A stretch of DNA of 64,000 nt from an uncultured Verrucomicrobiota bacterium (GTDB lineage: Bacteria > Verrucomicrobiota > Verrucomicrobiia > Opitutales > Opitutaceae): positions 8,031 through 72,030 of the forward strand of contig CAJXQX010000008.1 of NCBI GenBank assembly GCA_913058185.1, read 5' to 3'. The notes beneath the pieces are model-generated. The model worked only from the letters and a program-made list of their open reading frames with translations, was not told the origin of the DNA and ran no database searches. How positions within the stretch are numbered: the first letter of the stretch is position 1; each line of letters opens with the position of its first letter. The position numbers and the translations under genes were made by a program. Shown piece by piece: positions 7,952 through 41,866 of the stretch.

Positions 7952-8092
7952 TCCTGCATCAAAGACACCTCAGCGTAACGAATTTATTCCACCGATTTTC
8001 AAGCAGAAGGTCGCAAAGAAAACAAAGGGCTAAGCACCGCTGATTTCACAGAAGGAAGCAGAGCGCACGGGGCCAACCTACCGATACTAAGT

Positions 8093-8179
8093 GCCGCAAA
8101 AAGGCACAAAACTCGACGAACGAGATGAGCCTTTAGGCTCACTTCAGACTCATGGAAACAGGCCTGTGCTTTTTGCGGC
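8093..8179. repeat. REP-like palindromic intergenic element, copy A
   Basis: Arms GCCGCAAAAAGGCACA (8093-8108) and TGTGCTTTTTGCGGC (8165-8179) are inverted. The central mini-palindrome is GAGCCTTTAGGCTC. Roughly 80 percent identical by eye to copy B. Confidence 0.7.
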
Positions 8180-11015: not shown

Positions 11016-11080
11016 GGTAACGAAGACAACTAAGGGCTAGGGCGGACAGAGAAAATAGAGCCACACTACCGCTATTGATT

Positions 11081-11166
11081 GCCGCAAAAAGGCGCAAAAC
11101 CGGACCAACGCGATGAGCCTATAGGTTCACTTAAAATTCAAGATGCAGGCCTGTGCTTTTTGTGCC
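11081..11166. repeat. REP-like palindromic intergenic element, copy B
   Basis: GCCGCAAAAAGGCGCAAAAC...GAGCCTATAGGTTCAC...CTGTGCTTTTTGTGCC. Sequence is confirmed by track ORF 11079..11360. Lies between convergent genes. Confidence 0.7.
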
Positions 11167-11263: not shown

Positions 11264-12268
11264 TCAGCTAAGCTTGCTTACCGTATCGGTCCAGTTTTCC
11301 AAAACATCCGCCGGTTCGCGATCCGGGAACGTCCGGGCCACCACGGCCAGTAAATCCTGATTTTCAGGGAAAAGATCCAACAATGCGGTTCTGAGCTGAA
11401 TCGCAGGGTCATCCATTCCCGCGACCTCATCCCAGATCATATTGCCACTAATGGTTCGCGTGAGGGATTCGATAATCAACTCACCGAGCGGGCCGAATCG
11501 CTCAACCGCCAATTCGTGGATCTCACCAACCAAAAACTCTTCGTCTATTTCATGTTCCATTTCCTTGAGAACCCGCGCCATCCGATGGGCACTCCCGGTT
11601 TTCAGGAACTCAAGTAATCGGGTTTCGAAACCATCCGGGTTCGCCGCGTGAAACGCGCTCAACACTTCGGCTTGGCGCACATGGCTTTGGGAATCCTGGT
11701 AGGCGTTTACGCCCAATCCGTTCATCGAGTAATCAAACTGCACCAATCCCCCTTTGTTGCGAATCACGAGGGTGAGCGATGGATTCCCCATATGCATCAC
11801 CGTGTGAATGAATGCCTCTTCCGGCAGAATGCGCGTGATACCGCCGGGGGTGATCAAACGGAGCGCGGTGGGTTCTAACGCTCCCACTTGAATCCCGGGA
11901 ACGGGTTCATGATCTCGATGATAGGCAAACTGCGCCTCAATCGAGTATCCGGCCAGAACCTGGTAAGCCCCGTAAAACCCATGACCGTGTATCGACGTGC
12001 GACCGTGAAACCAAAAAAGGACCTCAGCATAAAATCGCGGTTCCTCGTAAACCACCAACGGAGGTTCACCGAATCCACTGTGGAAATTGACCTGCTCCGG
12101 TAAACGCTCACGCCCCAATGCCCAATCCGCCATGAATTCGATCCCGACTTCGGCGGGAACCGGAAACGCCGCCAGCACTTCGGCGGCTAGTTCGGGGAAG
12201 TTCTCTCCCAATTCGCCTTCGCCACAGCGCGCAGAAAGTTTTTTACCGATTTCTTTAAAGTAATCCAT
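11264..12268 (-). CDS. Hypothetical protein, cysteine-dioxygenase-like cupin N-domain plus helical C-domain
   Basis: Start taken at MDYFKEIG (12268). Cupin motif-1-like FWFHGRTSIHGHGFYGAYQVLAGYSIEAQF, and a second His-containing block FIHTVMHMGN. The family assignment is tentative. Confidence 0.6.
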   Translation of the reverse strand: MDYFKEIGKKLSARCGEGELGENFPELAAEVLAAFPVPAEVGIEFMADWALGRERLPEQVNFHSGFGEPPLVVYEEPRFYAEVLFWFHGRTSIHGHGFYGAYQVLAGYSIEAQFAYHRDHEPVPGIQVGALEPTALRLITPGGITRILPEEAFIHTVMHMGNPSLTLVIRNKGGLVQFDYSMNGLGVNAYQDSQSHVRQAEVLSAFHAANPDGFETRLLEFLKTGSAHRMARVLKEMEHEIDEEFLVGEIHELAVERFGPLGELIIESLTRTISGNMIWDEVAGMDDPAIQLRTALLDLFPENQDLLAVVARTFPDREPADVLENWTDTVSKLS

Positions 12269-12506: not shown

Positions 12507-12770
12507 TCATCCGGACTCTTCTACGGCGTCGTCAGTCGGTTTCGGTTTTGGGGATGATTTGGCGGAGATGAAGGCGCCCTGCTGCAACACGGCTGATTTG
12601 CTCAGGCGGAGCTGGTGGGCGAGTCGATTGAGGTGGTCCATCTCTGCGGGCAATAAGGAGGTCACCCGCGCCGTTCCATCGCGATCTACCCAACTTACGG
12701 GGTTGGGCCGCTGGCGGGCGAATTTGATCAGATCACGTAAAAAATCTTGGTCGGCGGCGGGCAGATTCAT
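12507..12770 (-). CDS. Ribbon-helix-helix (CopG/MetJ-like) DNA-binding protein
   Basis: Start at MNLPAAD (12770). RVTSLLPAEMDHLNRLAHQLRLSKSAVLQQ fits a strand-helix-turn-helix RHH pattern. The track extension MGPTNGDRG is encoded by the 56-nt repeat and is probably not translated. Confidence 0.55.
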   Translation of the reverse strand: MNLPAADQDFLRDLIKFARQRPNPVSWVDRDGTARVTSLLPAEMDHLNRLAHQLRLSKSAVLQQGAFISAKSSPKPKPTDDAVEESG

Positions 12771-12826
12771 GCCCCTATCCCCGTTCGTCGGTCCCACTTA
12801 GTCAGTCTCAATCGAATCTTTCTCCC
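12771..12826. repeat. 56-nt perfect direct repeat, copy 1
   Basis: GCCCCTATCCCCGTTCGTCGGTCCCACTTAGTCAGTCTCAATCGAATCTTTCTCCC, identical to 15125-15180. Abuts the RHH gene start codon. Confidence 0.85.
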
Positions 12827-13270
12827 CCGCAAGAGAGGTCGAATACGGGGCCAGGCTCTGAGGTCTGTGATTTAGCGGCGATCAATGGCGTCAGATCTTG
12901 TCTCTTGACCATTCTGATCACGGTGCGCTCCAAGGGGTTCACCTGCTATCCTCTTGTCTGAGTGACGGACGGCACGACATAACGGTGGTCAGTATTATCC
13001 GGGCGGTAATGCCGGGAAAAAGGAACTGGCAGCTAGAGTGCCGTCGAAGGCTCTGTTGTATAATATGGCGGAAGATCCTTATGACCGTGCGCACTAGCTA
13101 ACCCATATTTTCGATTGGAATGAAACGGAGCTGAAGGAACTCGATGAACAACACGGGGAAAGATCTGTTAAAGAAGATCAACAACGCCTAAATATCACCC
13201 AAACCACTGCTCCCCTCGTCTCTAATTTCGACTATACCTCCATAGTCACCCCAATCCGAAATTCCACCCC

Positions 13271-15034
13271 ATGTCTTTCCGCCACGTTTTCCTCATTCTC
13301 CTTTCGTCAGTATTTCCTCTACTGGCCACCGCCGAACGCCCCAACGTCATCGTCATTCTCACCGACGATCAGGGCTGGGGCGATCTCAGCATCCACGGCA
13401 ATACCAACATCAGCACGCCCAACATTGATCGGCTCGCCTCCCAAGGCATGGAGTTGGAACGATTCTACGTCAGCCCCATCTGCTCCCCCACCCGAGCGGA
13501 GTTCATGACCGGCCGCTACAATCCCCGCACCGGCGTCCGCTCGGCCAGTCGAGGTGAAGAGCGCATGGACCTCGACGAAACCACCGTCTTCCAATCCTTC
13601 CAATCCGCCGGTTACAATACCGCTGCATTCGGGAAATGGCATAACGGCATGCAACCGCCCTACCACCCCAACGCCCGGGGCATTGATGAATACTACGGAT
13701 TCTGCTCCGGCCATTGGGGGCACTACTACTCTCCCATGCTCGAATACAACGGCGAGATCGTCACCGGCGAAGGTTTCATCATAGACGATTTCACCAACCG
13801 CGCCATGGACTACATCGAGGAAAAGCAGGACGAACCCTTCTTTGTTTATCTCCCCTATTGCACCCCCCACTCCCCCATGCAGGTTTCCGATGAATGGTGG
13901 ACCAAATTCGAAGACAACGACCTGTCACTTCGGGCCCGGTCTGATCAAAAAGAAAACCTCCCCCACTCCCAGGCCGCTCTCGCCATGTGCGAGAACATCG
14001 ACTGGAACGTTGGTCGCCTGATGAAGAAACTAGACGATCTCGATTTGGCCGAAAATACCATCGTGATCTACTTCTCCGACAACGGTCCCAACGGCTACCG
14101 TTGGAACGGAGACATGAAAGGCCGCAAAGGAAGTGTCGAGGAAGGCGGAGTACGTTCTCCCTTCTTCATTCGCTGGCCGGGTCAAATCGAATCAGGCTCA
14201 AAAATCGACACCATCGCCGGCGCCATCGATCTGAAATCAACCCTCACTGATCTCGCCGGTATCCAGAGCACGGGCACACTGCCGATCGACGGTGTCAGTC
14301 TGAAACCGCTGCTCCTGCAAACCGGTGAAATCTGGCCGGACCGCAATTACATCAATCACTTCAAAGGCAAAACCAGTGTGCGCAGCCAACGCTTCCGCCT
14401 GGATTTCCAAGGTGGCTTGTTCGACATGCACGCTGATCCCGGTCAGCGAACCGATGTTCGCCAAAAACATCCCGAAATTTACCAGGAACTTCGGAGTGCC
14501 CAACAGCACTTTGATCGCACCGTGGTTTCAGAGTTACCCGACACCGAAACCGACGAACGCCCCTTCCTTATTGGTCACCAGGACTTTGATTTCACGCAGG
14601 TTCCGGCCCGGGACGCCAATGCTTCCGGCGAGATTCAACGTTCCAACCGAGCGCCCAATTGCTCGTATTTCACCAATTGGGTGAACGAGGATGACACCAT
14701 CACTTGGGAAGCGGAAGTGCTCGAAGAAGGAAACTACCAAGTGCAGGTTTACTACACCTGCCCCGAAGCGGATCTCGGATCCGTTCTCGAGCTTAGTTTC
14801 GGTGAAAGCAAAATCACGAAAAAGGTGACCGTGGCCAACGATCCTCCTTTGGTCGGCCCCACCTTTGACCGCTCTGACCGCGGCTCCGAATCGTTCGTGA
14901 AAGATTTCAAACCCATGAACCTTGGGGTGATGCATCTCAAACCCGGCCAACACACGCTTACTCTAGCTGCCCTGGAGAAACCGGGCAATCAAGTCATCGA
15001 AATGCGCCTCCTCATGTTCAATCGAGTCAATTAG
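13271..15034 (+). CDS. Exported S1-family sulfatase with C-terminal beta-sandwich (CBM-like) module
   Basis: Signal peptide, PNVIVILTDDQGWGD, CSPTRAEFMTGRY, GKWH, FSDNGP and KGSVEEGGVRSP. There is an extra module of about 150 aa after residue 430 or so. Confidence 0.9.
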   Translation: MSFRHVFLILLSSVFPLLATAERPNVIVILTDDQGWGDLSIHGNTNISTPNIDRLASQGMELERFYVSPICSPTRAEFMTGRYNPRTGVRSASRGEERMDLDETTVFQSFQSAGYNTAAFGKWHNGMQPPYHPNARGIDEYYGFCSGHWGHYYSPMLEYNGEIVTGEGFIIDDFTNRAMDYIEEKQDEPFFVYLPYCTPHSPMQVSDEWWTKFEDNDLSLRARSDQKENLPHSQAALAMCENIDWNVGRLMKKLDDLDLAENTIVIYFSDNGPNGYRWNGDMKGRKGSVEEGGVRSPFFIRWPGQIESGSKIDTIAGAIDLKSTLTDLAGIQSTGTLPIDGVSLKPLLLQTGEIWPDRNYINHFKGKTSVRSQRFRLDFQGGLFDMHADPGQRTDVRQKHPEIYQELRSAQQHFDRTVVSELPDTETDERPFLIGHQDFDFTQVPARDANASGEIQRSNRAPNCSYFTNWVNEDDTITWEAEVLEEGNYQVQVYYTCPEADLGSVLELSFGESKITKKVTVANDPPLVGPTFDRSDRGSESFVKDFKPMNLGVMHLKPGQHTLTLAALEKPGNQVIEMRLLMFNRVN

Positions 15035-15124
15035 CGGTAAAGAATCGAAACGGGACATTGCTTGATTCTTAACGAAGCCCCGTGCGGATAGAGTGGCAGG
15101 GGGCGGTCAAGATTCGAACAAGAC

Positions 15125-15180
15125 GCCCCTATCCCCGTTCGTCGGTCCCACTTAGTCAGTCTCAATCGAATCTTTCTCCC
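15125..15180. repeat. 56-nt perfect direct repeat, copy 2
   Basis: Identical to 12771-12826. The right part is confirmed by track ORF 15162..15383. Confidence 0.85.
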
Positions 15181-15362
15181 ACGAGAACCGCAGGGATCAA
15201 ACGCTCGATATCGACACTCCCAACGCTTTCTTGGGCGGTAAAAGAACCCGTCCCATGACCCTGGCCTGGGGTCTTTATATGCGGGTCCCTTTTCTCTGAT
15301 CTAGATCGTTCGGCATCAGGAATTCCCCTCCCAAATGAGCTGTCGAAGACTATGGTTAAAAA

Positions 15363-15779
15363 ATGAGCGAAAATCTGAAACAAGCTAAATTATTCTTCGA
15401 CGTATGCGAAACGGGCAAAGGGTGGGCTGAGTGCGAGAAGTTCTGCCATCCCGAGGCAACATTCTCCGCGCAGTCGGGGGCACTCGCAGAAATTCATCCC
15501 CTTGAGGGATACACTGAATGGATGAAGGGGCTACTTACACCTATACCTGATGGACGTTACGAAGTGCGCTTCTTTGCCGAGGATACCGAGCGCGCGTGTG
15601 TCGCGGCCTACGCGGTGTTTCACGGAACTCAAACGGGGCCAGGTGGCCCCGTCGCTCCCACAGGCAAGACGATCTCAGCCGACTACGTATACGCGATGAC
15701 GTTCGAGAATGGGCGCATTCGTCACATGACAAAGACCTGGAACGATACGGTCAGCCTTCAGCAGCTCGGGTGGGCATGA
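15363..15779 (+). CDS. SnoaL-like (ester cyclase / NTF2-fold) protein
   Basis: 138 aa. Pattern ...TEWMKGLLTPIPDGRYEVRFFAEDTERACVAAYAVFHGTQTG...ENGRIRHM is typical of SnoaL-like polyketide-cyclase-fold proteins. Confidence 0.7.
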   Translation: MSENLKQAKLFFDVCETGKGWAECEKFCHPEATFSAQSGALAEIHPLEGYTEWMKGLLTPIPDGRYEVRFFAEDTERACVAAYAVFHGTQTGPGGPVAPTGKTISADYVYAMTFENGRIRHMTKTWNDTVSLQQLGWA

Positions 15780-15852: not shown

Positions 15853-16569
15853 CTACTCGATCACTTGGTAGACCGGAGGTGCTTTTGCGGGTTGGTTCCT
15901 CGCGTCCACCTCGATTTTGATGTTGTATTGGGTAGCGAGGATATCGCGCAGTCGGGCCGCATCATACAGCTCTCCTTGGAAGGCGGTCGTAGGAATCCCA
16001 TGGTGGCAACGGATCCGTATGGTCAGTTCCGGAATGGCGACGGGAACGGGTGTCGACGATGTAATCGTTCCGGAGCGGGAACCCATTCCGCCCATGCCAC
16101 CGCCGGTCGAGCCCAGTCCAATTCCACTCGAGGGCGAACCACCGATGCTCACCCCGCCCGTAGGCGAACCACCGAGGCTAATCCCTCCCGTGGGCGAGCC
16201 GCCGATCGTCGTGCCCCCGGTGGACATCCCCCCACCACCGATGGGGGAAGTCGTGGATTTCATTACCCATTTGGTCTTAACATTCGCAAAATTGTCCTCC
16301 ACCACGAAGTGGGTGAATCTATACTTCAGAGCGATCTCTGCCGCCCGCAACAGGGTCAAGTCTTGCATCCGAGCGGAGGCTTGTCCTCCGGACGTATTCG
16401 ACAGGTAGGTGATCTCAAATTGGTCATTGCCGATGGGAACCGATTTGTAGCCTCCCCGGCTCCCCACTTCGCCGTAAGGCACTCCACAACCCACAAAGGT
16501 TAATAGGAATAAGTTGGAGAGGATGAGGAAAGTAAGACGACGAACCATGGGAGGAAAGAAACGGGGCAC
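15853..16569 (-). CDS. Lipoprotein with internal Gly-rich decapeptide repeats
   Basis: Lipobox LTFVGC (Cys28). Repeats GGSPTGGISL / GGSPTGGVSI / GGSPSSGIGL are encoded by about 30-nt tandem units within 16072-16239. The N-domain resembles CC0125/CC1285-type lipoproteins (tentative). Confidence 0.7.
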   Translation of the reverse strand: MPRFFPPMVRRLTFLILSNLFLLTFVGCGVPYGEVGSRGGYKSVPIGNDQFEITYLSNTSGGQASARMQDLTLLRAAEIALKYRFTHFVVEDNFANVKTKWVMKSTTSPIGGGGMSTGGTTIGGSPTGGISLGGSPTGGVSIGGSPSSGIGLGSTGGGMGGMGSRSGTITSSTPVPVAIPELTIRIRCHHGIPTTAFQGELYDAARLRDILATQYNIKIEVDARNQPAKAPPVYQVIE

Positions 16570-23003: not shown

Positions 23004-23121
23004 CTGCTATTTGTTGGCCACAGAAGGCACAAAAAGCACATGAGAATAAGTCTATAGGCTCACGTTTTCTCTCCAGCAGTCAGCAGGTTATTTTTGTGCC
23101 TTTTGTGGCCAATAGTAGCAG
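23004..23121. repeat. REP-like palindromic intergenic element, copy C (long arms)
   Basis: GGCCACAGAAGGCACAAAAA versus TTTTTGTGCCTTTTGTGGCC (19/20 complementary), plus an outer CTGCTA/TAGCAG pair. The core TCTATAGGCTCAC is shared with copies A and B. Confidence 0.65.
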
Positions 23122-23264: not shown

Positions 23265-24902
23265 TTAATTCGCCTGCAGTTGGCGGTAATCCTCGGGAGT
23301 CATCCACGCTAGGTCGTCCCACCAGTCGGTGTCGTTGGACTGCACGGGGCCCGGGGTCAGTCGGCCGCGGCAGACGATTTTGGTGATTCGTTTCTGTAAG
23401 CGTTCTGCCATCTTAGCATGATCAGCGATTACGTTGGACGCTTCGGTAGGGTCCCGGCCTAGATGATAAAGTTCGGCCATACTTTTCCCGTGGGGCATCA
23501 CCAGTTTCCAGTCACCATCACGGATAGCGAACCGACCTTTGATCTCGTGATGGATTAGGGGTAAGGCGGCGCGTTGGGTCTCCGGATTTTGGAGCACATC
23601 GTAAAAACTGACACTGTCTTCCCCACCGTCCACTGGCAGCTGCACTTCGAGCATCTCGGCCAAGGTGGCCAACACATCGAGCTGACTCACCGGTTCGTCC
23701 CAGCGCCGCCCGGCCTCGGTAATCCCGGCCGGCCAACGCACGATAAACGGCACGCGATGGCCACCTTCATAGATGTCGCGCTTGCCCCCGCGAAATCCGC
23801 CAGAGCTCACGTGGTTATATTTTTCGATACGCTGCTTCCACGTCGTCTCCGGACCATTGTCGCTGGAAAAAATGATAAGGGTATCATCGGCCAAACCGGC
23901 CTCATCTAAGTAGGCTAGAATACGTCCGATGTGGTGATCGGTTTCGATCATGAATTCTCCGTAGGCGCCCGCCTCCCCTTGTCCGCGAAACTCCGGCAAA
24001 GGGATGACCGGCTTGTGGGGCGAGGTGTAGGGCAAATACAGGAAGAACGGCTCGTCACTCCCGGCGGTGTGTTGCTGCATCCACTCGATGGATTTGTCGG
24101 TGAAACGCGTGAGGCATTCACTATCAATGAAGTCCGGAGCGACCTCCATCAAATCAGATCGCAGTTCGGTTTCGTAGGGCGGGGCGATCCGATAGTCGCT
24201 GAGGGCAATTTGATTGAGTTTCTTCTTCGTAAATAACGTGGGCGGAACCTCGGCGTAGCGCCCCTCGAACCAAGCCAGCACCCCATAGTTGAGCGAGGCC
24301 GGGATGCCGTAAAAATAGTCGAAGCCTTTATCGAGCGGCATATCCATAACTGGCTGGGTCCAATCGCGGTTGTCCTGCTCTCCCGGAAAGTCCATCCCTA
24401 GATGCCACTTCCCCACCATGGCGGTGCGGTAGCCGTTGTCGCGGAGCAGCGATGCCACCGTCATGCGGCCATCCTCGATCAGGCCCTTCACTTCTGCGCC
24501 AAAGACGCCGCGCTTCAAAGTCGTGCGCCAGTTGTATCGGCCAGTGAGCAGGCCATAACGCGATGGCGTGCACACGGTGTCAGAGCTGTGACCATCCGTG
24601 AACAAAATGCCTTCGCGCGCGAGCCGATCAAGATGCGGCGTCTGGAACTTCGATTCAGGATTGAGCGCACTCATGTCGCCGAATCCTTGGTCATCCGTGT
24701 AGATCAGAATGACATTGGGCTTGGGCGTCGCGGTGGCTCCGACTGCCATCAGCAGCAGGCCCAACAAGACGAATATCGGGCGTAACGCCCGACCCACATT
24801 GCGGTTCTCGAGTGATTGAAGTTGGTCGGGCTTTCTTGTCCGCCAAAGCCTTGGCGTAGGAGGAATGCCCGACAGCGAATTGAGTATCTGTTTCATTTTC
24901 AA
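23265..24902 (-). CDS. Exported S1-family sulfatase
   Basis: Signal anchor, PNVILIYTDDQGFGD, CTPSRYGLLTGRYN, VGKWHLG, FSSDNGP, FRGGKRDIYEGGHRVP. The start codon overlaps the stop of the upstream oxidoreductase. Confidence 0.9.
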   Translation of the reverse strand: MKMKQILNSLSGIPPTPRLWRTRKPDQLQSLENRNVGRALRPIFVLLGLLLMAVGATATPKPNVILIYTDDQGFGDMSALNPESKFQTPHLDRLAREGILFTDGHSSDTVCTPSRYGLLTGRYNWRTTLKRGVFGAEVKGLIEDGRMTVASLLRDNGYRTAMVGKWHLGMDFPGEQDNRDWTQPVMDMPLDKGFDYFYGIPASLNYGVLAWFEGRYAEVPPTLFTKKKLNQIALSDYRIAPPYETELRSDLMEVAPDFIDSECLTRFTDKSIEWMQQHTAGSDEPFFLYLPYTSPHKPVIPLPEFRGQGEAGAYGEFMIETDHHIGRILAYLDEAGLADDTLIIFSSDNGPETTWKQRIEKYNHVSSGGFRGGKRDIYEGGHRVPFIVRWPAGITEAGRRWDEPVSQLDVLATLAEMLEVQLPVDGGEDSVSFYDVLQNPETQRAALPLIHHEIKGRFAIRDGDWKLVMPHGKSMAELYHLGRDPTEASNVIADHAKMAERLQKRITKIVCRGRLTPGPVQSNDTDWWDDLAWMTPEDYRQLQAN

Positions 24903-29981: not shown

Positions 29982-30153
29982 CCGATCTCACAGCACGTCT
30001 AGTGAGTGAGGCACGACCTCTTCGAAACGAGGTCGAACGCGAAAACTACTGGGAGGAGAATTCATGGGGAGGGGTAACTTCGGAGAACCCTAGCAACACC
30101 TCCTCCTCGCGCCAGTCTACTTTTCCCAGACTTCGGATGGGGACGTCACGGGA

Positions 30154-30225
30154 GTCGGGCGTAAAGCCCGACCCACATTCGCCATCGTTCAGCCAGTCTG
30201 ACGTGGGTCGGGCTTCACGCCCGAC
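30154..30225. repeat. Pair of GC-rich palindromic hairpins
   Basis: GTCGGGCgtaaaGCCCGAC (30154-30172) and GTCGGGCttcacGCCCGAC (30207-30225). Sequence is confirmed by track ORF 30002..30262. Located just 3' of the minus-strand sulfatase stop. Confidence 0.7.
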
Positions 30226-30230
30226 TTATC

Positions 30231-39538: not shown

Positions 39539-41866
39539 CTACAAATCTAAAGAGACTGAGAAAAGAAACGTTCTCGCTTCGTTGGTCGCCGCTCTGGAGC
39601 GGACATAGAACGTGTCCGTCGCATTATCGACGTTGATCCCGTAAGTTACGGGTTGCTCACCGATCATGGTTGGGTAGCGAGCAAACAGATTGACTTCGGT
39701 ATAACCATCTTCGGTTACAAAGCGGTTGGCGATATTACCGAACTGTTGAATCGGTCCTTCAGCATGGACTACGCCACCGCCAATCCGGAGTCCTTTCAAT
39801 GGGCCATCATCAACCGTGTAGTTGGTGAAAAGCGTGAAACGGTGAGGTGTAGCACCTTCTAAGCGAAGGCCAGTTGCGACATCACCGACAACTACTGCAT
39901 CGATCCAGCTGTAAGCTGCTACAATGTTCCAGTTTTCCGTCGGATTGTAGAATAGCTCGAGCTCGATTCCCTCACTTTCGTCACTGGTCACTGATTGGTC
40001 TGACAAAAAGGTCACAGGATTGAAGTCCCGCCGAACAACGTTATCTTTTTGAATATTAAACGCCGCGATCGACCCACTGAGTTTCCCATCGAATAGATCG
40101 GTGAATTTGAGTCCGAATTCGATGGCATCACTGGTTTGTGGCCCGATCAGTTCTCCCGTATCTGGATTTGCCCCACTTTGCGGCTCGAAAGCATCAGCTA
40201 CATTGGCAAAGAAGTTCACTTTCTCATTGATGCGATACACGCCACCGAGTTGGAAATTCGTGTCATTACCTTTGAGGGAAGCGTTGGGAATACCTCCTAG
40301 TAAGGTAGATCTTTGGGTGAAATCAATGTGACGAATACCGGCGAGGATATTGAGGCGATCTTCCATGAAGTAGATGTTATCGGTAACATAGAATGTATCG
40401 ATGTCCGTAAAGGTGCGGTCATTCTGATTATTACGTGGCGCAAATGACCTTAACTCTGACGGGCTAGGAACATCATCTTTCCAGATCTCCACCCCGTTAA
40501 GAATATCGTCTTGGTATAGAAAATGTCGGAAGACTTTTCCAGTTCTTGCGCTAATATCATCGAGGATTGCTCTTTCTCCTGCATTGCCGCCTCGCAGACG
40601 GTAACTGCCCAGACCACCTGCAACGGTTTCAGCTTTGCGGTAACCAAGGAGAAGCTGGTGCCTCACGTCTCCCGTTTGGAAACCAATGATGTCATTAAGG
40701 GTATGAACTTCGTCGCGAGTTCTACTGTTTTGCCACGTGTTATTTGAATCTGAAATTTTGTTCCCAGGATCAGCGGAGTTGGGACTGAAGGTGTTAAATT
40801 CACGGAAACTTACCGTCTGGTCCGTATCATGGATAGTGCCCTTGTATTGGATATTGTGGGTATCGCTGAACGAGTGACGAAGCCCAACCGTGAGGAAATT
40901 GTTGTCGGAATCAAATATGTTCCCAGCAGTGGAAGATACATATTCTTTAGGAATAAAAGAGTTATTGTAACGGGTGTTACTTTCATTAACTCCGTCTACG
41001 TTGTCTACTGTATCTCCATCTCCATTCAAGTCAGTGGGGGTCCTTTCAAATGACCAAGTAGCCCGCTGCGAAGGAAACCCTTTCTGTTGGTTGTCCCCAA
41101 CCATGAACGAACCTTGAGTATTCTCGGTAAAATCGTAGGTTCCCGATAGTCCAAGAAATACTGTTTCTTGGCCATCGACCCACCGCCAACCCTCGTGGTC
41201 TTTGTAATCTGCGAGGAAACGTAATCCCAATTTGTTGTTCTTCGAACGAGCCGTGTAATCCATCTTTGCGCCTATGCGTGCATTGGTGCCAGCGCTGAAT
41301 GAAACAGTTCCTCCTTCTTTTAGATTAGGTGCTTTGGTGATTACATTAATCAATCCTCCAGGATCCGATTGCCCATACAGGGTATTGGGGCCTTTGACGA
41401 CTTCGATTCTGTCGATCATTTGAGGCGGGATATACAGTCCGCCGGTTACACCATCGACCAAAAGATTCCGATTACGAAATCCGCGAATGGAAAACGAAGA
41501 TGGGCGGCTGGCACCCAAATTATTCCGGGTCGTTTGGGTGATGGAGGAATTGTAATCCAATGCCTCGGTGAAATCGCCGATCAGACTATCGTCGAGGAAT
41601 TCAGAGGTGATGACGTTGATCGACATAGGCACGTTCTTCAGAGAAGTCCGCATACCTGTGCCGGAAATGGTAACGGTCGAACCATAACCACCTTCTACTT
41701 CTTCAACGGAAAAAGGACTCAGTTCGATGACATCATCGTCCGTTCCATCCTGAGCGAACAGGGTTGAAGCGAAAGAAGCTAAAACGACCGTGAAGGTCGT
41801 GCGTATAAATCTTGCGTGGCCATTGGTGGCGACACGCGTAGCCGACGGGCTAAACAATGCTTTCAT
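39539..41866 (-). CDS. TonB-dependent outer-membrane receptor
   Basis: Signal peptide, plug region VIELSPFSVEE...KNVPMSINVIT...IEVVKGPNTLYG, and a long beta-barrel body. No SusD-like gene is adjacent. Confidence 0.9.
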   Translation of the reverse strand: MKALFSPSATRVATNGHARFIRTTFTVVLASFASTLFAQDGTDDDVIELSPFSVEEVEGGYGSTVTISGTGMRTSLKNVPMSINVITSEFLDDSLIGDFTEALDYNSSITQTTRNNLGASRPSSFSIRGFRNRNLLVDGVTGGLYIPPQMIDRIEVVKGPNTLYGQSDPGGLINVITKAPNLKEGGTVSFSAGTNARIGAKMDYTARSKNNKLGLRFLADYKDHEGWRWVDGQETVFLGLSGTYDFTENTQGSFMVGDNQQKGFPSQRATWSFERTPTDLNGDGDTVDNVDGVNESNTRYNNSFIPKEYVSSTAGNIFDSDNNFLTVGLRHSFSDTHNIQYKGTIHDTDQTVSFREFNTFSPNSADPGNKISDSNNTWQNSRTRDEVHTLNDIIGFQTGDVRHQLLLGYRKAETVAGGLGSYRLRGGNAGERAILDDISARTGKVFRHFLYQDDILNGVEIWKDDVPSPSELRSFAPRNNQNDRTFTDIDTFYVTDNIYFMEDRLNILAGIRHIDFTQRSTLLGGIPNASLKGNDTNFQLGGVYRINEKVNFFANVADAFEPQSGANPDTGELIGPQTSDAIEFGLKFTDLFDGKLSGSIAAFNIQKDNVVRRDFNPVTFLSDQSVTSDESEGIELELFYNPTENWNIVAAYSWIDAVVVGDVATGLRLEGATPHRFTLFTNYTVDDGPLKGLRIGGGVVHAEGPIQQFGNIANRFVTEDGYTEVNLFARYPTMIGEQPVTYGINVDNATDTFYVRSRAATNEARTFLFSVSLDL

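Follow-up and report, generated by a model that had tools for sequence, protein, structure and literature searches.

A perfect 56-nt direct repeat on both sides of a single exported sulfatase gene raises the question of whether this gene is carried by a mobile cassette or whether the repeat records an event of another kind. The repeat is located on a 64-kb stretch of DNA, in the following termed the window, from an uncultured Verrucomicrobiota bacterium of the Opitutaceae (assembly GCA_913058185.1, contig CAJXQX010000008.1). The window represents a glycan-degradation region with at least nine sulfatases, a fucosidase, a TonB-dependent receptor, a sodium:solute symporter, and esterases. A preliminary description had offered three options, i.e., insertion of a sulfatase cassette by duplication or recombination, attL/attR-like ends, and a segment poised for excision, and had suggested that the locus could show how sulfatase paralogs spread in this genome. 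With moderate confidence, we consider the two copies to be the native leader of a small neighboring gene and a gene-less duplicate thereof, which a single junction duplication would have left behind as a fixed rearrangement scar and not as the ends of a mobile cassette.

The repeat pair and the leader of the small gene

The 56-mer (GCCCCTATCCCCGTTCGTCGGTCCCACTTAGTCAGTCTCAATCGAATCTTTCTCCC) is present in exactly two copies of the same orientation within the window (Table 1), and a search tolerating up to three mismatches gave no third match in the window and none in 100 shuffles either. Ungapped extension of the repeat leads to 59 nt with one mismatch (58/59), reaching 12829 and 15183, respectively. 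Between the copies, there is a spacer of 444 nt, the sulfatase open reading frame (ORF), another 90 nt, and nothing else, which confirms the observation of the preliminary description.

Copy 1 directly abuts the start codon of a small gene on the minus strand, as it ends at 12771 and the A of the ATG is position 12770, and it carries a Shine-Dalgarno-like GGGGA 7 nt ahead of this ATG. A homologous block was found, as a single copy right before the ATG, in every lineage with fetched DNA (five other lineages). The identity of the leader amounts to 94.5% over 55 nt in L131, 92% over 50 nt in L125-L127, 90% over 50 nt in L099-L102 and L128, ~75% in L111, and ~60% in L103. The conservation of this block equals that of the coding sequence. 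Given this position of the homologs directly before the ATG and a conservation on a par with that of the coding part, the 56-mer represents the gene's own 5' leader, with copy 1 as the original, so that the role assigned to it in the preliminary description is confirmed by the ortholog leaders. Copy 1 is hence native on its gene side and probably on its other side, too. There, BLAST homology of L131 continues for 14 nt beyond the leader into the flank (spacer R1), and this flank is weakly collinear with the upstream DNA of L099 (p ~0.05), while that of copy 2 is not. Longer non-coding comparisons with L099, L125, L111, and L131 resulted in nothing significant, one reverse-complement control scoring higher, and the spacer behind copy 2 (R2) showed no significant similarity to the upstream DNA of the relatives. 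The order of events is not readable from the spacers.

The small gene had been described as encoding a ribbon-helix-helix (RHH) protein. Its product gave no match in Pfam or NCBIfam even at E<=10. The AlphaFold model is of moderate confidence (predicted local distance difference test score 71.5) and contains a strand-helix-helix at residues 34-66, composed of a strand (34-37) and two helices (41-54 and 58-66). CopG was both the best sequence match in the PDB (E=0.7, non-significant) and, as entry 1ea4, the highest-probability local structural match (0.5-0.6 Å over 29 columns; Foldseek probability 0.38, E=4, non-significant). Without a family match, with non-significant CopG matches and a model of moderate confidence, the RHH label is plausible rather than established. 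Directly downstream of the small gene, the window and all relatives with that DNA (L099-L102, L111, L125-L128, and L131) have a 334-aa gene. Searches of its product against Pfam, NCBIfam, and PADLOC gave no match, and a thiol dioxygenase of the cupin type was its only, weak hit (E=0.39). Among genera of the Opitutaceae, this protein shows 80-83% identity, and its gene forms a conserved pair with the small gene, the neighborhood of which differs for nearly each lineage. L112-L117 have the 334-aa gene with no small gene within 10 kb.

Copy 2 lies 90 nt past the stop codon of the sulfatase and 182 nt ahead of the ATG of a SnoaL-like gene. No ORF with homologs was found behind it on its strand, in agreement with the earlier observation that it has no gene behind it, and no second leader copy was seen in the relatives. 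The assembly graph assigns copy 2 an entry and an exit flank of its own.

A sigma-70-like promoter was found neither in nor beside either copy, and an Rfam search returned nothing at E<=1. In RNA folding, the 56-mer alone performed worse than shuffles (z=+1.14), and longer constructs in either orientation reached z values between -0.7 and +0.4. By eye only, the leader displays the short tandem motifs GATTC GATTG, GACT GACT, and GACC GACG. As a side observation, the 16 nt abutting copy 2 (15109-15124) are complementary to 15159-15174 inside the 56-mer at 13 of 16 positions, which is marginal in comparison to shuffled flanks (p 0.045-0.075); counting G-U pairs on minus-strand RNA, 15 of 16 positions pair (hand count). 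A shorter, 6-nt version of it is found among the first codons of the small gene.

Gene order in relatives and in the sampled population

The closest lineage found is L131, in which the N-terminus of the 334-aa protein is 95% and the small protein 86% identical. Here, the gene order is 231-aa gene, 177 nt, leader, small gene, and 334-aa gene, with neither sulfatase nor SnoaL-like gene in between. Positions 21-234 of L131 match window positions 16071-15852 with 77.7% DNA identity, and the 231-aa proteins share 69% identity over 64 aa (E=1e-25). In the window, the distance from the 231-aa gene to the leader is 3.0 kb and holds two opposite-strand genes in the order 73 nt, SnoaL-like gene, 182 nt, copy 2, 90 nt, sulfatase, 444 nt, and then copy 1. 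Judged by this alignment and gene order, L131 resembles an empty site with respect to both the sulfatase and the SnoaL-like gene. The upstream neighbor of the small gene varies with the lineage: an esterase and an IS110-family transposase in L099, a pair of extracytoplasmic function sigma and anti-sigma factors in L125, a TraY-like gene in L111, and the 231-aa lipoprotein-like ortholog in L131. A single leader copy without the sulfatase, as the preliminary description had proposed to look for, is found in the relatives L131, L099, L125, and L111, and not in the 18 conspecific contigs described below.

In its composition, the sulfatase does not stand out in the window. Its translation contains the formylglycine motif CSPTR, matching C-x-P-x-R, and its composition is native (z=0.39 for the GC content at third codon positions, GC3); neither it nor the SnoaL-like gene deviates from what is usual in the window in GC3 or codon usage. 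An ortholog of the sulfatase (P0018) from a sister lineage sampled alongside L099 is 88% identical and follows glycosyltransferase genes, unlinked to the small gene. DNA homology between this ortholog's locus and the window is limited to the sulfatase coding sequence (13331-15035), and the divergence of the sulfatase from this ortholog is similar to that of its neighbors. Ordinary composition in combination with an ortholog in another context marks the sulfatase as a native gene with changed neighbors and not as a recent foreign cassette. A foreign origin of the block is not indicated by GC3, codon usage, or the plasmid search, which gave no match.

To what extent the arrangement varies within the species was followed in 18 conspecific contigs, which were collected via exact-protein look-ups from many marine samples and comprise contigs with k119_ and NODE_ names, scaffolds, and two metagenome-assembled genomes (MAGs) of NCBI. 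Over 6-22 kb, their identity to the window is 99.5-99.99%. The gene order is the same in all 18, and 17 contain both perfect 56-mers; the remaining one, L007, stops at window position 15179 inside copy 2. Consequently, the arrangement is fixed in this set, and no empty site was found among these 18 contigs (>99.5% identical). A split sulfatase in L016 was considered as a pseudogene and rejected, the break being a scaffold gap of Ns. Among 19 conspecific sequences, the small gene and both copies are free of segregating sites, compared with ~2 per 100 nt in the other spacers; as only ~2 sites are expected in the 112 nt of the copies, this absence is not significant. The pairwise diversity of the population is ~0.1-0.5%. 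The relatives of the local proteins belong to the Verrucomicrobiota, mostly labeled as Opitutaceae or Opitutales, and the runs containing the sequence are marine, seawater, estuary, and brine metagenomes.

Copy number was evaluated by depth and branching of Logan unitigs (k=31), which are broken at the 56-mer. In the graphs of the runs X2, X3, X13, and X14, the 56-mer forms a node with exactly two entries (small-gene side and sulfatase 3' side) and two exits (sulfatase upstream side and SnoaL side), and the 56-nt unitig reaches 1.3-3x the depth of its flanks, with a mean of ~1.8 in seven runs. This branching together with the ~1.8-fold depth fits two copies per genome and no dispersed family. 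The hallmark of dispersed repeats of the repetitive extragenic palindromic (REP) or MITE-like (miniature inverted-repeat transposable element) type is therefore lacking as far as is apparent without a search of the complete genome, with two copies in the window and in the unitig graphs and metagenome matches that represent the same loci. Species-representative genomes contained no match to the exact 56-mer, a 40-nt degenerate core, or a 24-nt core, so that no further copies emerged where the preliminary description had called for a search. A metagenome-wide scan with the 24-nt core of the leader returned five contigs, of which four are single-leader loci of the sister lineage and the fifth is L124, discussed below. 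The depth of the inner segment equals approximately that of the flanks in X1, X3, X4, X7, X10, and X11, and a deficit is hinted at only in X5 and X6, at 3-6x depth.

In the reading that we favor, a 2.3-kb sulfatase segment would have been placed beside the leader, whereby 56-59 bp of the leader would have been copied at the other end of the segment. Candidate routes are the repair of a staggered break, a template switch, or, via a circular intermediate with one copy of the leader, a single crossover. The event would date to the time after the split from the nearest known lineages (~82-84% DNA identity) and before the common ancestor of the sampled population. Since then, the now fixed copies would have persisted as a passive direct-repeat pair, giving rise at most to rare homologous deletion or tandem amplification of the sulfatase. 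The leader would bear the ribosome-binding site and possibly an operator, and the small gene and the 334-aa gene would represent a two-gene module in marine Opitutaceae-like Verrucomicrobiota. Copy 2 would be neutral; zero to one difference in 59 nt is what is expected of a neutral duplicate somewhat older than a population with a diversity of ~0.1-0.5%. The earlier suggestion of an insertion by duplication or recombination fits the single-leader, sulfatase-free loci of L131, L099, L125, and L111, but its direction is unproven.

Several points weigh against this reading. The change could have been an insertion here or a loss in L131, and every other lineage has a different upstream neighbor; with these neighbors differing by lineage and with non-coding flanks too diverged to align, no outgroup polarizes L131 versus the window. 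The repeat spans position -56 to exactly -1 of the gene, which is not predicted by a random junction duplication, and a target duplication of 56 bp far exceeds any standard transposition footprint. Furthermore, if a marginal similarity in the flank of copy 2 (see below) is real, the duplication was longer and older, and its perfect core would need gene conversion or selection.

Among described phenomena, putative mobile promoters come closest to the 56-mer pair. As described by Matus-Garcia, Nijveen and van Passel (NAR 2012; summarized in PMC3575422), these are upstream stretches of at least 50 nt that are reused in a genome without the adjacent coding sequence, with an identity of at least 80% and in some pairs of 100%; they lie upstream (-150 to -50) of two unrelated genes, and their mechanism is given as not established. 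Likewise, our locus features a non-coding block identical at 56 of 56 positions, the adjacent coding sequence of which is not duplicated. In contrast to those cases, the block from -56 to -1 is a leader and not a promoter, and copy 2 is without a gene behind it and faces the 3' end of the sulfatase. The anatomy of the repeat is unusually tidy, yet it is most probably an ordinary rearrangement scar. As such, the locus provides a clean, datable example of gene-order change in a sulfatase-rich marine Verrucomicrobium and illustrates that perfect repeats on both sides of a gene, however striking, are not necessarily the mark of a mobile cassette. The locus can serve as a test case for how leader or upstream segments become copied identically when no mobile element is known to be involved, as well as for the question of whether such copies get co-opted for regulation.

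Alternative explanations for the second copy

Copy 2 might be functional and maintained, either as a second operator or decoy for the RHH-like protein or as part of a sulfatase 3' untranslated region (UTR) antisense to the leader, which we regard as unlikely. Repressors of the CopG/Arc/MetJ type usually bind their own upstream DNA, and the small protein has an RHH-like strand-helix-helix. In addition, the repeat runs from the ATG to about the point where cross-species conservation fades, and the lack of segregating sites in either copy points in the same direction, although it is not significant with the ~2 sites expected. If the marginal flank similarity is real, the core would have been kept while the flanks decayed. 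On the other hand, evolutionary conservation of copy 2 cannot be shown without a second copy in any relative, and the leader differs at 3-5 positions between orthologs, which means that perfect identity is not required for leader function.

The antisense version of this idea depends on transcription through copy 2. The stretch from the sulfatase stop to copy 2 is free of terminator-like sites, and the first plus-strand terminator-like hairpins downstream of the sulfatase (15257-15299) are located past copy 2. In four metatranscriptomes, the coverage of the sulfatase was low and patchy, and that of the small gene was zero. One metatranscriptome contained a 158-nt unitig (15064-15221) comprising copy 2 and both flanks, at depth 2, unstranded, and with DNA carry-over possible. 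This unitig independently confirms the junction between the sulfatase side and the SnoaL side; it allows, but does not prove, that the sulfatase transcript reads through copy 2. In the case of read-through, the RNA would hold a perfect complement of the leader of the small gene, by which translation of the regulator would be coupled to transcription of the sulfatase. Regulatory RNAs embedded in 3' UTRs, e.g., CpxQ and SroC, act by short, imperfect seed pairing and are experimentally defined. A sulfatase transcript reaching the hairpins would resemble them in that its 3' UTR would contain a stretch fully complementary to the leader and ribosome-binding site of a different gene; unlike in those cases, transcription through copy 2 rests here on one unstranded unitig of depth 2. 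That the sulfatase mRNA carries in its 3' UTR an antisense stretch matching the regulator's leader and ribosome-binding site perfectly over 56 nt, or that copy 2 serves as a second operator, appears rather improbable to us. If true, a newly arrived sulfatase would have become part of the control circuit of its divergently placed neighbor by way of the junction duplication.

Alternatively, copy 2 could be the remnant of a partial second small gene, consisting of the leader and the first codons, whose start codon and coding part decayed or were deleted, with the leader kept identical by gene conversion from copy 1. We hold this for improbable as well. It would account for a weak similarity to the first codons of the RHH-like gene, which the preliminary description had noticed behind copy 2. 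This similarity is indeed found, as the ATG-side flank of copy 2 matches the first codons at 14 of 17 positions with one gap (p ~0.016, uncorrected, for 40-nt flanks in a total of six flank tests); on the minus strand, the sequence past copy 2 is GAATCTTGACCGCCCCC and its counterpart in the gene is GAATCTGCCCGCCGCC. Multiple alignment places an insertion of 7-8 nt at the expected position of the ATG, which offsets the match and removes the start codon. However, the similarity is short and marginal after several tests, and the flanks on the other side of the two copies show none. Moreover, the 90 nt between copy 2 and the sulfatase stop contain no further trace of the small gene, and a conversion tract ending exactly at -1 is an extra assumption.

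The idea that the 56-mers are attL/attR-like ends of a mobilizable sulfatase cassette, with its recombinase encoded elsewhere, is very unlikely in light of our data. It draws on the direct repeats bracketing one gene that is missing from this place in the relatives, and identical direct repeats at both ends (56/56; 58/59 extended) are shared with integrative elements. A recombinase in or next to the element is missing. At the level of Pfam, neither an integrase nor a transposase nor another recombinase was detected in all large ORFs of the 64-kb window or among the Pfam marks on the conspecific contigs, in line with the earlier statement on the window. No inverted repeat pairs the ends of 12827-15124, the 56-mer has no internal inverted repeat, and neither viral contigs (searched with the 24-nt core) nor plasmids gave a match. 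The locus thus has no recombination-site hairpin, and the features of an integron cassette, i.e., an attC-like fold and an integrase, are absent. Target-site duplications of transposons are ~2-15 bp long. The locus shares with them a short host sequence doubled on both sides of inserted DNA, but differs by a length of 56-59 bp and the absence of terminal inverted repeats and a transposase. Compared with the att sites of integrative elements and genomic islets, the direct repeats of tens of bases around a segment which relatives lack at this place are alike, whereas an integrase, a tRNA or usual target, and any presence/absence polymorphism among the 18 conspecific contigs are missing, the cargo is a single ordinary gene, and the repeat is the leader of a neighbor with only two copies per genome. 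In addition, no other sulfatase of the window is flanked by the repeat, which is part of the small gene and not of the sulfatase. It does not explain the expansion of the sulfatase family, and the proposed link to the spread of sulfatase paralogs is, like the att-like ends, not supported.

A segment poised for excision, the third option of the preliminary description, is likewise not supported by the population data, which show no polymorphism in the 18 contigs and no consistent depth deficit. Minimal efficient homology for recombination is reportedly ~25-50 bp in E. coli (Shen and Huang 1986; Lovett et al. 2002). Like other short-repeat substrates of RecA or slippage, identical 56-bp repeats 2.3 kb apart would suffice for loss or tandem duplication of the sulfatase at low frequency; in contrast to those, no recombinant was reliably observed here. 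The sole candidate junction is found in L124 (OJEF01013277.1), which joins 15065-15124, the 56-mer, and 12827 onward, as is expected of an excised circle or a tandem duplication. This contig follows the window to ~14005, beyond which it consists of sulfatase-like sequence unrelated to the window, with the Nextera adapter CTGTCTCTTATACACATCT at its end. Being chimeric and adapter-terminated, it was rejected as evidence for a circle or tandem copy. Its low weight is further justified by the low-coverage graph of X34, in which both entry flanks are present and only one exit flank is covered, since such a graph shows an artefactual route to the same path.

Two observations from individual runs concern the same junctions. 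In X34, a brine metagenome with a more divergent strain, no contigs covered 15181-15436 (256 nt) even at 80% likeness, and the 56-mer runs unbranched into the upstream flank of the sulfatase. This gap is most likely a coverage dropout at 3-7x depth, and may otherwise reflect a different structure in that strain. In X3, a 151-nt unitig of depth 6 tracks the 3' flank of the sulfatase (15061-15128) with three mismatches and leaves 4 nt into copy 2 (TATCGATCGTTCGGGTAGTC...). It could stem from a rare strain without copy 2 or from a chimeric read, being a single read-length unitig of one run that is not extendable.

An assembly artefact, such as a collapsed or duplicated overlap of k-mer length, is effectively refuted: the largest default k of SPAdes for short reads is 55, so that the repeat equals this maximum plus one, and the SPAdes contig L007 ends inside copy 2, but the same structure is present in 17 contigs from different samples including the two NCBI MAGs, the k119_ names suggest an assembly k above 56, the unitig graphs of many runs give both contexts at equal depth, and the 158-nt unitig spans copy 2 with both flanks.

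Features of the locus and further observations

Table 1. Features around the 56-nt repeat pair, in window coordinates.
Feature	Coordinates	Strand	Description
334-aa partner gene	11264-12268	-	Directly downstream of the small gene
Small gene, 87 aa, RHH-like	12507-12770	-	No Pfam family; 15 homologs at 62-88% identity (narrow family)
Copy 1	12771-12826	-	Leader (5') native to the small gene, -56 to -1; exact match and ortholog leaders
R1 spacer	12827-13270	+	Copy 1 to sulfatase ATG; perfect TATAAT at 13059-13064 (+)
Exported S1-family sulfatase gene, 587 aa	13271-15034	+	PF00884, E=1.5e-56; signal-like N-terminus
L2 spacer	15035-15124	+	90 nt, sulfatase stop to copy 2; no terminator-like site
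Copy 2	15125-15180	-	Gene-less ectopic duplicate of the leader; exact match
R2 spacer	15181-15362	+	Copy 2 to SnoaL-like gene; terminator-like hairpins at 15257-15299
SnoaL-like ester cyclase gene	15363-15779	+	Pfam; missing from this position in L131
231-aa lipoprotein-like gene	15853-16548	-	NCBIfam CC0125-like lipoprotein, below cutoff

Homologs of the SnoaL-like protein were found at 72-80% identity, the labeled ones belonging to Verrucomicrobiota, Gammaproteobacteria, Gemmatimonadetes, and other groups, with unrelated neighbors. This distribution suggests frequent horizontal transfer of this gene, and its context in the relatives gave no information on the history of the locus.

Concerning the sulfatase, an exact 30-mer (14101-14130) and an exact 21-mer (14745-14765) are shared in many metagenomes with a contig that has equal depth and lies outside the window, at nearly equal spacing (611 versus 614 nt). 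These matches point to a sulfatase paralog in this genome, the short identical patches of which possibly result from gene conversion. In the sister-lineage contigs L119-L121, tandem units of ~70 nt (GTAGGGGCGAGGCTTGCCCACGCCCGCCCTGCCCCAC...) are located ~100-450 nt past the sulfatase stop, and all three contigs end inside this array.

A second pair of direct repeats, 94 nt long and 77% identical, is present at 8059-8152 and 11047-11140, with small hairpins such as GCCGCAAAAAGGC in each copy. It brackets ~3 kb with a second GNAT acetyltransferase gene and the M61 peptidase gene. The right copy is positioned between the stop codons of the M61 gene and the 334-aa gene. For this repeat pair, no counterpart was detected at any related locus.

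Finally, short palindromic intergenic elements at 30153-30226, 24776-24800, and 23014-23112 look REP-like or terminator-like; they comprise GTCGGGCGTAAAGCCCGACCCAC with its inverted partner, a copy related to it at 24776, and, at 23014/23084, a hairpin of 29 nt. The gene of the TonB-dependent receptor (39539-41866) is a compositional outlier in the window, with a GC content of 0.476 and a GC3 of 0.487 (z = -3.0).

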